DNA from: Octopus vulgaris
Taxonomy: Eukaryota
DNA: 64,000 nt
NCBI GenBank assembly: GCA_951406725.2
Contig: OX597830.1
Span: 60,512,001 to 60,576,000, forward strand
Direction of reading: 5' to 3'
Shown here: piece by piece, positions 8,459-64,000 of the stretch
Position numbering within the stretch: position 1 is the first letter of the stretch
Layout of the letters: the number at the start of each line of letters is the position of its first letter
Position numbers and translations under genes: made by a program
The notes under the pieces: generated by a model
The model's input: only the letters and a program-made list of their open reading frames with translations
Told to the model about the DNA's origin: nothing
Database searches by the model: none

Positions 8459-8652
8459 CGCCATGATTGACTGATAAATCCACAAGTTTTTTTTTTATAT
8501 TCTCTCTCTATTTCCTCATATTCCTTTCTGTTGAAGAGCGTCGGCTCGAAACGTAAAAGATTTTCTCACCTTCCCGAGCGTCAAACTAATACACTTACGT
8601 GTTGTTTATACACCTGACTTCGTCTTTTGTTTTTCTGTAAATTTCAGCTATT
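8459..8652 (+). mobile_element. ~200-bp dispersed hammerhead-bearing element (family H), copy 1
   Basis: cttt-CTGTTGA-a-gagc-gtcg-gctc-GAAA-cg-TA-aaag at 8524-8559; homologous to copies at 41.2, 43.8, 47.5, 51.5 and 63.9 kb. Confidence 0.8.
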
Positions 8653-8778
8653 ATATATATAAGCTTCAAACACCATTCAGAAGCAAGACAGCTGTGACAT
8701 AGGTCACGTCTTTCTATATGAACTTTTTGAAAAGCTTTAACTATATCAATAAGAAAATATTTTAACTATTCTCAGTGC

Positions 8779-9150
8779 AAAGATTTTTGCCAACATAATA
8801 TGGCAGTTCTGGTTTAGGAAGGATGTTGCTGTAATTTGGCCCCAGGAGACATCGTCTCCAGCTAGCTATACGACACGATCTGAGTCCTTATATTTTCGAA
8901 CAAGGGAATCTAGCACCCCCTCCCCACTCAGCTCAAAACAATATCTGTGTATCGCGATTTTAGGGTTATTTCCCGATACACAGATATTGTTTTGAGCTGA
9001 GTGGGGAGGGGGGTGCTAGATTCCCTTGTTCGAAAATATAAGGACTCAGATCGTGTCGTATAGCCAGCTGGAGACGATGTCTCCTGGGGCCAAATTACAG
9101 CAACATCCTTCCTAAACCAGAACTGCCATATTATGTTGGCAAAAATCTTT
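8779..9150. mobile_element. Near-perfect long palindrome (fold-back or MITE-like element)
   Basis: Arms 8779-8954 and 8974-9150 (~176 bp) are reverse complements with one mismatch seen; 19-nt spacer. Confidence 0.9.
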
Positions 9151-9395
9151 TCTCCAAAGTACTGTTGCTGAATATCTCACTTGTGAGATTTAAAAATAGT
9201 AATTTTCCATTCTCAATTTTGCATTTTCAACTTCTATTTCTCCTATATTTCTACCTGTGGAATAAAATAACCTTTATATATGAATATATGTACTAGGCTT
9301 AAGAAATAATACCTGGGTTCGATTTGACGGCTAACATCCTTCAAAGCAGTGCTCCAGTAGGGCCGCAGTCGAACGACTGCAACAAGTAACAGAAT

Positions 9396-9581
9396 ATAGA
9401 CAGACAGACAGATAGATAGATAGATAGATAGATAGATAGATAGATAGATAGATAGATAGATAGATAGGTAGGTAGGTAGGTAGGTAGATAGATAGATAGA
9501 TAGATAGATAGATAGATAGATAGATAGATAGATAGATAGATAGATAGATAGATAGATAGATAGATAGATAGATAGATAGAT
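9396..9581. repeat. (GATA)n/(GGTA)n microsatellite following a SINE A 3' tail (about 9310-9395)
   Basis: Seen directly; the tail gtgctccagtagggccgcagtc...aacaagtaac matches the SINE A end. Confidence 0.9.
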
Positions 9582-59033: not shown

Positions 59034-60159
59034 TAAGAATCTTGAAAACCTGATATAGAACTCAATTCTGCCGACAGAAAAATTTGACTTTCCTGGTGTC
59101 TTTTATCCGTTTTATCTTTTATACGAGTGACAATATATATTTCTCCATAAATGTCCCTTCTCTGTCGCGAGAGGAGACTCAAAACCAAAAAAAAAACCTC
59201 AACGTAATCGCTGCTGAACAATTAGTGGATTTCTTTCATTGAAACACTTTTGATTCAGAACTAAAATGCAGCGTCTGAATATTTTGCTAATCGATAAATT
59301 TCATTCGTTTGAGAGAGTAATATGCGTGTGTGAATATATATATATATATTATATATATTATATATATTATATATATTATATAACGTATGTCCCTTTGTCT
59401 ACCTGTTATATAATTCTGTCTCCTGTCCGTCTATGTGTCTTTCTGTTCCACTCCCGCTCGCTCCCATTTTACCCCTCTCTCTCTCTCCCTCTCTCTCTCT
59501 CTCCCTCTCTCTCTCTCTCTCTCTCTCTCTCTCTCTCCCTCTGTCTCATATCCGACGCGATTTCCTTATTTGTTCGCTGATATTTGTCTCAGTCTTTCAC
59601 AGAATCCCTTTTATTTTTCTATTTGTTTTTTAGTTGGGTTTTTTTTCTTCTCCATACCCCATATACCAACCTTCACATCCCTTTACCCTCTTCTTCTTCG
59701 CTAACCTCCAATTTTCATCACCTACCCCCAACTCTTTCTATCATCCACCCTTTTCTTCCTCGTTCTCTCCCCTTTTTAAATGACTCTTCCTCCTTCTAAC
59801 ATCCATCATGTACCCCGACTAAGCTGCCACCTACTGGCGTGCAAACAGATAAAATGGCTGAAGAGGAGTTAGTATAAATAGTGGTGGATTAAACCACACT
59901 GCCATAAATAACTACCACTCCATTCAGCACTACCACCAACACACAAGACCACTACTAGGCACTAAATCACCACCCCCGCTCTATAAAATGCCCTCACCCC
60001 ACCACCTTCCACTTTAGGGGCCGATATTCTGCACCATTTCCACATGACACAACTACCTTCATTACTTGCTAATAATACCCCTACCATCACGGCCACCATT
60101 TCACACCACCAAACACTTGTATCTTCATCACCATCGCCACCACTCAGCCCACACCGTAC

Positions 60160-62940
60160 AGGCACCACCACCACCACCACCACCACCACCACCGCCATCA
60201 TCATTAACATCATCATCATCATCATCATCATCATCATCATCATCATCATCATCATCATCATCATCACCACCACCGCCTCCAATGCTTTTACACCATTTAC
60301 ACCACACCACCACCACTCCTATCCCCACCAACACAACTAGACCACAACCATCACCTCCACCACCCACACCACGCTGTATAGACACCACCAACACCACTAC
60401 CACTACCACAACCTACACTGCACTGCCACTATCACCACTGGCACCAGCGCCGCCGACACGACACCACAACACAACACAACACAACCTCCTCCACCACCTT
60501 CGCAACACTCACCGCCACCACCACCACCACCACCACTACCGCCACAACTAGAATCATCACCAGATTTAGGAAGGAAAAGGATGCGATGAAGGTTGCAGTG
60601 TGTGCATGTCTTGCAGAATTGCAGCGTGCGTATGTGTGGGTGAGTGTGTGTGTGTGTATGTGTGTGGTGTGCGTGCGTGCGTGCGTGTGTATGTGTGCAC
60701 AGTTGCATATGTTGCATAGATAGGGTCCTCCTTGCATACAGGAGAGGAGGGAGAGGAGGAGGCTGATTTCATTGGTTAGGGACCTAAGGGGATGTCTTAT
60801 AATAGCAACCAATGTGATGATGACAGCAGCAGGTTGTTGTAGCTACTGTAATAGTAGATGATGGTGGGAGGGTCTCGGTGGTGGTGATGGGTACGGTAGG
60901 AGCGTTGGTGGCAGAGGTGGGGTGGGGAGTGGAAGTGATAATGGTGGTGTATAGTACAGGTGCTTGTAATGTATGGTGGTTGTGGTGGTAGTGGTGTGGC
61001 GTAGTGGAGCAGGTGTGGAATGTTACAGGTGGTCGTTGTGACAGTGGAGTGGTAGTGGTGGTGGTGGTGGTGGTGGTGGTAGTGATGGTGGTGGTGGTGG
61101 TGGTGGTGGTGGTGGTGGTGGTGGTGGTGGTGGTGGTGGTGGTGGTGCTTGTGGTGGTGGTAGTGATGGTGGGGGGGGGGGTGTATAAAGTACAAGTGGT
61201 TGGCGTAGTGTAGGGATAGAGGTTAATGGTGAGTATGTCTCCGATGACGAAAGGGGGTGATGAAATTGTGGAAAAAGGGGCTGGAATGGATACTAGAGAT
61301 GATGATGACGACGACGACGATGGTGATGATGATGATGAAGATCATGATGATGATGATGACGACGACGACGATGACGACGATGATGATGATGATGATGATG
61401 ATGATGATGACGACGACAATGATGATGATGATGACGATGATAATGATGGCGGCGGCGGCGGTGGCGGTGGTGGCAGTGGTGGTGGTGGTGATTGATGACG
61501 TTTGATGATGATGATGATGATGATGATGATGATGATGACGACGACGACGACGATGACGACAATAATGATGGTGATGGTGAAGGTGATGGGGATAGCGATG
61601 GTGGCGGAGGTAATGTAGGGCTAGTTGATACAAGGTGGCGCTGGGTTGTTGGGCAAGTTTATATAAGAAGAGGGCTGGAGGTGGATGCTGGGAGGTAGTT
61701 TATGGTAAGTGGTCGTGACGGCGACGGCGGAGGCGGCATCGATGTCAGTGTGGGTCGTGGCAGTGAGTGGGGGTGATATTGGCGGGTAATTGTGATGGTA
61801 CTGGCTGGTGGTGGTGGTGGTAGTGGTGGTGGTGGTGGTGGTGGTGGTGGTGGTGGTGGTGGTGGTGGTGGCGTGCCACTGCAGCTGTTGATGGTAGTGA
61901 TGGTACTTTAGGGCTAATTTATGTAAGATGAAGGATGTGACTGATTTTTCCTAAAAGGTATTTAACACCTTTTAGACGTAGAATAATAATCAACGCCAAC
62001 AACAACAACAACAGCATCAACAAAAACAATAACAACAACAACGAACTCTTACCAGAAGGAAGCGTGATGTGATTGGGTCGAGCCTTGCCATCCGGCGATT
62101 ACTTACATGCCTAGGGCTACACAGAAACAACGACAAGGCCATCGATTTGAATGCCTCTGCGCAGGGTCTCGAACTGCTGTAATAACAACCAAATTCCCTT
62201 CAAATCATACCTACAGATTTTAAAGTAAGATTTTCAAAAAGATATCCCAATCGACAGTATGGTCATAACTGGAATACTTTTGAATATAGGTCTACTTCTT
62301 TATTACTGATCTGGGGATAAACAACATCACGACTAAGAAAAAAAATTGATTAGTATTATCGCAAACAGCAGCAGCAGCAGCAGCAGCAGCAGCAGCATAA
62401 CTACCTGCAATAGCAACAATAAAAAAAACCAACGTTGTAAATTGAAAAAATATAAAAAGACACCAGCTGCAACATCTGGAAGAGCATGGATGAAAAAAAA
62501 AACAATAGAAAGAAAGAAACAAACGCAATAACGAAGACAACAACAACAAGAACAACAACAACAGCAGCAGCAGCAGCAACAGCAGCAGCAGCAATGGCAG
62601 TAAGAATATGCAACAATATACTACACAGCAAAAACAAAATCTACAAAACTAATGCAGCAACATCGTCATCAACATGAACAACAACAACAACAACGTAATA
62701 AAGAAAAGCATTAACAGCAAACAGTGCTAGTAGCAGCTATAACAACAACAACAGCAACAACAGCAATAACAACGGCATTAACGACAACAACAATAACTGA
62801 AGCAACCACAACAACAATATAATCAAGAAAAACGTTGACAGCAACACTGATAGTGGCAGCTGTAACAACAACAACAACAACAACAACAACAGCAACAACA
62901 ACAACAGCAACAACAACAACAACAACAGTAGCAGCTGCAA
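60160..62940. repeat. Trinucleotide-rich zone (CAC/CAT, GGT/GAT, CAA/CAG fields)
   Basis: Seen directly, interspersed with short unique stretches. Confidence 0.9.
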
Positions 62941-63922
62941 CATTGGGATTTGAAAAAAAAATTTAAAGAATCGAATGAAAGAAGCGAATAATATAAAAGA
63001 AGAAAAAAAGTTTTGTTTGGGTTGATTTTTGTTTTAGCTTTTGTCTTGTTTTGCTTTGTTTTGTTTTTTTTGTTTTTTTGCCCTTCAATTTCGGTGATTG
63101 AATTAGTTGAGTCGTCTCATCCCAATAAAATTTATCGATTACTTCAAGCTGTATTATCGTTAGCAATCAGTCTCCGAGTTGCATTTGCCCAAATATCTGC
63201 GAAAACTAATTTGCCGCCATGAAAACGCTATTTTTCAATAAAAGCAGACGACATGTTGAATAGAGAGCTCCTTCAATTACATATATCAAACTGGCCAAGC
63301 TACTTTGGATAACAATTGTAGGAAAATTATTCTTATTAACAACGGTGACACGACACCAGACAGTTTTCTATATTCTGTCGGATGGGATGGTGGTGCGGTT
63401 ATTATATTGCAAAATTCTTGGATCGAGTCTTACTGACTCTAAGTCTTTGCTTTTCATCTCCTGTATCACTTGCCATCGCCCTCTCTCATTCCAATTAGTA
63501 TTTGTCTCCTTTGTAATTGGTCTAATGTACAAATAGTTACGCGCACAGACACACACACACACACACACACACACACACACACACACACACACACACACAC
63601 ACACTCACTCACACACAAACACTCGATTATGTGCCCAGAAGAATTAGCAAGCGTTAATAATTTACATTTTTCTACTCATTGATTAAGAAAAACTTAACGT
63701 GGTTGGGCGAGGGGGGAACGCTAAATTGATGCCTTAGCAGTCTTCTCGTCATACTTCTTGGATGCGATTACAAGGGAAGAGGCGATTAATCTGGCACACA
63801 CATACATACACACGCATGCATACACACATACATATATGCATGCATGCATACATACAAAGGTACACGCATACATGCATGCATATATACACGCATATATATA
63901 TATATATATATATATATATAAC

Positions 63923-64000
63923 GGGTAGGTTTACGAAAATAGACAAAAGACGAAGGCAGGTGGAGTACAAACAAACAAATGTATTAGTATGGCGCTCAGG
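63923..64000 (-). mobile_element. Family H copy 6, cut by the window edge
   Basis: Nearly identical to 43778-43857; follows (TA)n. Confidence 0.8.

Follow-up and report, generated by a model that had tools for sequence, protein, structure and literature searches.

A hammerhead motif with U at core position 6 in a Penelope-like retroelement family of Octopus vulgaris

The repeat family considered here is represented by six copies in a 64,000-nucleotide stretch of the Octopus vulgaris genome (assembly GCA_951406725.2, contig OX597830.1, positions 60,512,001 to 60,576,000; hereafter the window) and carries a hammerhead-type ribozyme motif with U instead of A at core position 6 (U6 instead of A6). 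Its closest described relatives are the minimal hammerheads of metazoan Penelope-like elements (PLEs), which, like the octopus motif, lie in both terminal repeats of the element and occur mostly in solo truncated copies, with some inverted pairs (PMC4209133). As published, their consensus (CUGANGAH ... GAAAN-palindrome-NUH) matches the octopus family except at position 6, and both share an extra base between positions 9 and 10.1, the G10.1-C11.1 pair, a CG palindrome substituting for helix III, and a helix I that is short (PMC4209133). One core variant, U3-A8, is reported there; the rows viewed of the supplementary alignment have A6 throughout, but A6 was demanded by that search. PLE minimal hammerheads are described as slow and as cutting only as multimers (PMC4209133; PMC6765202).

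A natural change at position 6 is described for the hammerhead of phage Bcep176, whose A6C core has low but detectable activity in Mg2+ and prefers Mn2+ (PMC3088659; PMC7151607). Bcep176 is a single phage sequence with C6, whereas the octopus family, an animal retroelement that is active, has U6 in more than 20,000 copies and no helix III. The Poseidon element PAc of the green anole, likewise a PLE with a terminal hammerhead, offers a model for protein-assisted cleavage and for the use of uncut RNA as template; its hammerhead was reported to cut only with its protein (PMC11167929). PAc belongs to a different PLE clade and its motif overlaps the start of the open reading frame (ORF), whereas the octopus motif lies approx. 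750 nt upstream of the ORF start; no change at position 6 was noticed in the account of PAc. Animal non-LTR (long terminal repeat) retrozymes are also short PLE-related repeats with type I hammerheads (PMC7229834; bioRxiv 10.64898/2026.07.22.740005), but they are described as tandem non-coding arrays, whereas copies of the octopus family lie scattered, their 5' ends ragged, and form a continuum with full-length coding elements. The literature searched yielded neither a natural A6U hammerhead nor an account of this U6 element family; the Lunse 2017 survey of PLE hammerhead variants and several supplements lay outside it.

The U6 family and its autonomous element

U6 is the family state across more than 20,000 genomic copies. 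An exact 27-mer with positions 6 and 7 left free has 16,332 genomic matches (control, 0), of which 180 (1.1%) carry A at position 6. Fixing the stems and leaving the core free gave 20,739 matches (position 6 among the 100 listed, tallied by hand: T 94, A 3, C 3), and fixing the U6 core with stem II free gave 23,902. A core-blind sample was picked by a 3' motif (22,487 matches); its sites came from the 100 listed, all at one chromosome end, and gave 92 distinct copies. The motif is ungapped in 70 of them, with T6 in 68 and A6 in 2, other changes being mostly CpG decay; of the remaining 22, most break off downstream of the core and three contain core indels. Among 84 copies chosen independently of the core, 81 are U6 and three are A6. 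A sequence-only reading of the window had treated U6 as a possible family-wide variant, and these counts uphold it: A6 is the sporadic state.

The A6 share equals the T-to-A rate in the flanks (1.05%), and A6 copies are spread over all subfamilies in a tree with the motif masked (as seen in the part of the output viewed); for these reasons, a later mutation is the preferred reading of the one A6 copy in the window, and the idea that A6 copies form a separate active subfamily was dropped. One old cluster is rich in A6 (3/14 in the two oldest groups versus 0/70 elsewhere, p 0.004) and may be transitional. The stretch is also present in sequencing runs coded as organisms A-E; no A is listed at position 6 there, but known variation at position 7 (N7) is likewise unlisted, so that the absence of A is uninformative.

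The repeats are the 5'-truncated 3' ends (pseudo-LTRs) of an autonomous Penelope-like retroelement of 4.5 kb. Its unit consists of a terminal repeat, an ORF with reverse transcriptase (RT) and C-terminal GIY-YIG endonuclease domains, and a second terminal repeat; at the 3' side the copies share a common end in TA runs, and their 5' ends are ragged, the longer copies entering the ORF. A protein search of the genome returned 24,093 candidates, 112 of which were scored, with open frames of up to 1,214 codons. In 20 fetched loci with long ORFs, a U6 motif lies 3' of the ORF in every case, and a second one lies approx. 4.5 kb upstream in 15. Sixteen of the 20 could be parsed from the start codon and all are within 0.7% of locus L131; a stop-free frame of 963-965 aa, from Met to the end of the endonuclease, is present in eight, all of which carry U6. 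The element is recently active. Of 30 loci with ORF-linked copies of older subfamilies, 16 have a visible motif; U6 is found in 15 of these, and the sixteenth is the A6 locus that served as the query. The sequence-only reading had looked towards an autonomous PLE with the same terminal repeat, and one exists. Its alternative, a non-autonomous element amplified after loss of cleavage, fails on intact ORF copies that have U6 in both repeats and is unneeded because ORF-bearing copies, intact and older-subfamily alike, carry U6.

The protein matches RVT_1 above the cut-off (31.9 versus 29.6 bits), whereas its GIY-YIG profile match is weak (E 0.0065, below the cut-off), although the motif itself can be read directly in the sequence; an earlier Pfam scan of the C-terminal 366 aa gave no match. 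Database relatives of the protein carry PF00078, and some PF01541. Intact proteins (L125-L131) contain the DKG motif as KPADKGG; between their GIY-like and YIG motifs lie two cysteines, with histidines downstream, in agreement with the CCHH finger feature, and their RT-endonuclease linker, CSRPRCRTC, fits the C-x2-5-C-xx-C feature of Neptune that is also found in Nematis. Direct terminal repeats with the hammerhead inside, as from a partial tandem insertion, were read across their junction. As described in PMC8557442, endonuclease-bearing (EN+) PLEs of the Neptune and Nematis types share with the octopus element a single ORF, DKG, RT, a C-x4-C-x2-C linker, plus a C-terminal GIY-YIG domain with two inner cysteines, together with partial tandem and inverted copies and TA-run ends. 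By the features described in that paper alone, the element would be classed as an EN+ PLE of Neptune or Nematis type.

Some further features of the element were seen. In L131 (4790-5109) and other intact copies, the ORF does not stop after the endonuclease; it goes on as a low-complexity tail, variable in length and rich in proline, serine, and leucine. The sense strand of the element is only 31% purine, and the hammerhead motif 58%. In L131 (1521 to about 1068), two runs have contigs in which the 5' untranslated region (UTR) is connected back into the terminal repeat, probably reflecting a nested genomic insertion.

Derivation of U6 and constraint on the fold

A sister family in the same genome (4,844 matches) shares stem II with the U6 family and has a 3-nt loop and A6; among 100 matches listed and tallied by hand, position 6 is A in 97 and T in none. 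In stem I, the sister family has GUUU/AAAC and the U6 family CUUU/AAAG. Two decayed copies link the sister family to an ORF with 52-53% identity to that of the U6 family; in a pattern search for 5'-extended sister copies, only the source copy matched. Eighty metagenome loci encoding related proteins were also examined; 12 contain the motif, and all 13 hits have A6 although position 6 was free in the search. In the closest of these motifs, the stem is equally long and the loop has 4 nt. In a protein tree of 21 rows (one dropped for short overlap), the U6 copies form one clade (98) that adjoins the sister family (90) and is nested among A6 elements. Because the sister family and 13/13 metagenome motifs have A6 and the U6 clade is nested among A6 elements, U6 is the derived, lineage-specific state.

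Canonical cores number 8,578 matches in the genome (control, 349), and the majority of the 100 listed belong to a third, unrelated-looking repeat family (L175-L204), whose minimal hammerhead is of the canonical A6 kind. A search for a second large family without A6 and with a longer stem II gave 1,045 matches versus 879 in the control and showed none. In four of seven sister motifs found by their 3' end (L015, L141, L241, L408), position 4 is C instead of U, which suggests a second core-variant subfamily missed by the CUG-based sister count. The window also holds remnants of a second decayed PLE (53549-54289, minus strand), with RT and GIY-YIG pieces at 24% identity to the U6-family protein; after them comes a minimal hammerhead whose core has the usual A6 (53039-53075, minus strand).

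Constraint on the motif was assessed by sorting 84 core-blind copies by their 3' flank alone into five groups, the flanks of which differ by 8-37%. Between the five subfamilies, none of the 34 constrained motif positions varies, compared with 48 of 114 flank columns (Fisher p 3.5e-7) or, for the 3' flank alone, 15 of 50 columns (p 2.3e-4); the majority motifs of the groups differ only at N7. When 70 copies were clustered by distance, leaving 16-24 unclustered, no site other than N7 and H17 varied (p 0.0008-0.014). ORF four-fold sites differ by approx. 15% between subfamilies (11/77, 12/78, 12/81). Across families (19 rows), 90.7% of cells are paired and two-sided changes are found in seven of eight helix I and II pairs; the covariation score was reached by none of 500 shuffles, a measure that related rows inflate. 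Helices I and II and the G10.1-C11.1 pair are present, as in minimal type I hammerheads. The earlier suggestion that a hammerhead-type fold is under selection is borne out in that the core is unchanged between subfamilies except at N7 and H17 and the helices covary across families, and these comparisons fit a hammerhead fold that stayed under selection after U6 had been fixed.

Inside the U6 family, the picture differs. Pair-keeping changes make up 9 of 22 stem substitutions, compared with 28% predicted by the mutation spectrum of the flanks (p = 0.14). None of the 22 is two-sided, and no covariation was found within the family; the 100 stem variants listed from the search with stem II free are, read by eye, nearly all one-sided. 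Both stem changes in the window copy at 47.5 kb do give G-U pairs, as had been noticed from the sequence, but these counts do not support taking such pairs as a sign of selection within the family. The lack of an excess of pairing is expected because individual copies are dead; what tests the master copies is the comparison between subfamilies.

Window copies and motif anatomy

A profile search of the window recovers six copies of the repeat and no more (Table 1). Together with direct reading, it confirms the five full motifs of the sequence-only reading and their common pattern, with T, C, C, T, and A at position 7 and T at position 6 in four of the five; the core of the sixth copy, just beyond the window, is also T6. 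The strict motif does not occur in 200 shuffles of the window. Two other descriptions proved overstated: the loop differs by one base in one of five window copies, and the element is not limited to approx. 200 bp, as the copy at 8459 reaches upstream to the endonuclease remnant. The extra A after A9 that had been pointed out is present but is already part of the published minimal-hammerhead consensus, as given in PMC4209133.

In the 70 core-blind copies, base 9a is always A, and an ACGU palindrome replaces helix III. The four loop 2 bases are kept in 59, 68, 68, and 67 of them, the first being a CpG site, and H17 is A in 58, T in 10, C in 1, and G in 1. Window copies are dispersed, and sampled genomic copies are solo, inverted, or ORF-linked, no genome-wide array search having been made. 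Among Rfam matches above the gathering score in the window, only U11 and no hammerhead was found, nor was there one among the 150 matches listed of 256.

Table 1. Features of the U6 family in the window (positions are those of the 64,000-nt stretch)
Feature	Position	Strand	Remarks
GIY-YIG endonuclease ORF, decayed C-terminal piece	7750..7836	+	5' of first copy; tblastn 76% identity over 29 aa to intact protein, E 2e-6
PLE 3' end (part of pseudo-LTR), oldest subfamily type	8459..8644	+	ends in TA run; extends upstream through 3' UTR
Minimal type I hammerhead motif	8524..8559	+	U6 at 8531, N7 = U, H17 at 8555
5'-truncated copy	41148..41276	-	motif 41221-41256; only A6 copy in the window (A6 at 41249)
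Copy of approx. 190 bp from common 5' end	43783..43972	-	motif 43875-43910, U6, N7 = C
Copy with two single stem changes to G-U	47478..47642	-	motif 47549-47584, U6, N7 = U
Copy of approx. 200 bp	51432..51628	+	motif 51505-51540, U6, N7 = A
Sixth copy, 3' part	63925..64000	-	motif just past window end: U6, N7 = A (locus L064)

Two further features lie in the same stretch. The U11 spliceosomal RNA match (13549-13682, minus strand; 64.6 bits versus a Rfam gathering score of 39) has a deviant 5' end and may be a pseudogene. The genome, of 2.8 Gb and rich in microsatellites, is marked as eukaryotic by this match and as that of an animal by the element's relatives. A near-perfect inverted repeat (hairpin) of approx. 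195 bp at 14740-14935, with a below-threshold microRNA match, is probably a small repeat of the DNA-transposon type.

Possible activity of the U6 motif

The explanation that we consider probable, with modest confidence, is that the U6 motif is a slow ribozyme, which would cut only as a dimer or with the help of the element's own protein. On this account, A6 would have changed to U once, early in this PLE lineage, and selection on master copies would then have held every other core base. U6 would reduce the cleavage rate through the loss of A6 contacts, and the predicted U6-A15.1 and G5-C15.2 pairing would mask the ACGU palindrome needed for the dimer, lowering the rate further. With cleavage slow, most transcripts would stay uncut and serve as templates, and occasional cleavage would still process tandem transcripts.

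Several points weigh against a slow ribozyme. Alignment columns are not independent and the flanks are partly of low complexity, so the p-values for selection overstate the case; moreover, conservation extends to the stems, to loop 2, and to further short motifs of the repeat, so it may have causes other than catalysis. C4 in four of seven sister motifs raises the possibility that constraint on the CUGA turn is weakening throughout the lineage, which speaks against a special role for U6. Copy ends show no sign of cleavage in either the U6 family or its A6 sister. Folding was predicted on 57-nt pieces, and natural A6 copies are also predicted to misfold, though differently (stem I pairing probability of 0.12 versus 0.44 for U6). 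Finally, no A6U cleavage rate was found in the published literature.

The copy ends deserve separate mention. Among 91 mapped copies, one has its 5' end at the predicted cut site, 73 read through the core, and 36 end 66-100 nt upstream; in the sister A6 family, seven of nine copies also read through. The 5' ends were considered as a trace of cleavage, and this use of them was dropped, as neither family has a peak at the cut site. The 36 upstream ends (counted from C3) cluster around CGCCATG (window positions 8459, 43972, and 51432), and the sister family has a similar common start, which is possibly a transcription start inside the terminal repeat. A splice-acceptor role of the pyrimidine tract and U6 was also looked for; no joint is listed among contigs, the RNA origin of which is uncertain. 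Among the runs listed as containing the stretch none is of RNA, and their contigs show neither transcript ends nor strand.

That the U6 motif is dead for cleavage, its fold being kept as a binding or folding signal for the element protein or as an internal promoter or start region, is a serious but doubtful alternative. Like the core, loop 2 and both stems are frozen, beyond catalytic needs, and copy 5' ends disregard the cut site; in addition, catalytic mutants of the lizard PLE hammerhead are reported not to have impaired insertion in vitro (PMC11167929). U6 is also predicted to zip the core into one long hairpin, with a G5-C15.2 pairing of 0.65 in 96 U6 copies versus 0.05 in 30 natural A6 copies, and of 0.89 in copies with both U6 and U7. 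However, N7 takes all four bases (A22, T27, G6, and C15 of 70), though a hairpin would favour U7, and changes between subfamilies are confined to N7 and H17, the very positions that the hammerhead consensus leaves free. Full activity, with the frozen GUAG loop, a dimer, or a protein offsetting the loss of A6, is quite unlikely. It would account for strict conservation after the change to U6, for a loop 2 that is fixed in the U6 family and variable in the A6 sister family, and for a U6 family (about 24,000) larger than the A6 families counted (8,578 and 4,844), but published changes at position 6 strongly lower activity in Mg2+ (PMC3088659; PMC7151607), PLE minimal hammerheads are described as slow even with A6 (PMC4209133), and the search for a second large non-A6 family with a longer stem II came out near its control. 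A bolder model, also unlikely, would make U6 a working natural core and the first position-6 change to become fixed in an active lineage of retroelements. The frozen GUAG loop or the element protein would rescue it, and the predicted U6-A15.1 pairing would serve as a latch, keeping the monomer shut until a partner or protein opens it.

The least probable account, and one that is largely refuted, holds that U6 arose by neutral accident in a master element that was non-autonomous or short-lived and that the motif looks conserved only because the copies are young. Substitutions among individual copies do look neutral, and most copies are short and without an ORF; against this, U6 is found in intact ORF copies, and the core is unchanged between subfamilies despite their divergence in flanks and at four-fold sites.

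The element class and the motif are already known and other core variants are on record; what is notable is a position-6 change fixed in a large active family. The role of the hammerhead in PLEs is called unclear in the literature, and one in vitro study reports that cleavage is dispensable for insertion (PMC11167929). The octopus genome offers a matched natural set for this question: a large, recently active U6 family, rare A6 copies on the same background, and an A6 sister family. Should U6 prove inactive, several subfamilies of an autonomous PLE would have flourished without cleavage and yet kept the fold, which would point to a non-catalytic role. If U6 cuts, more core bases would be tolerated than CUGANGA-demanding searches allow, and such searches would miss whole families (here, more than 20,000 copies with no Rfam match).

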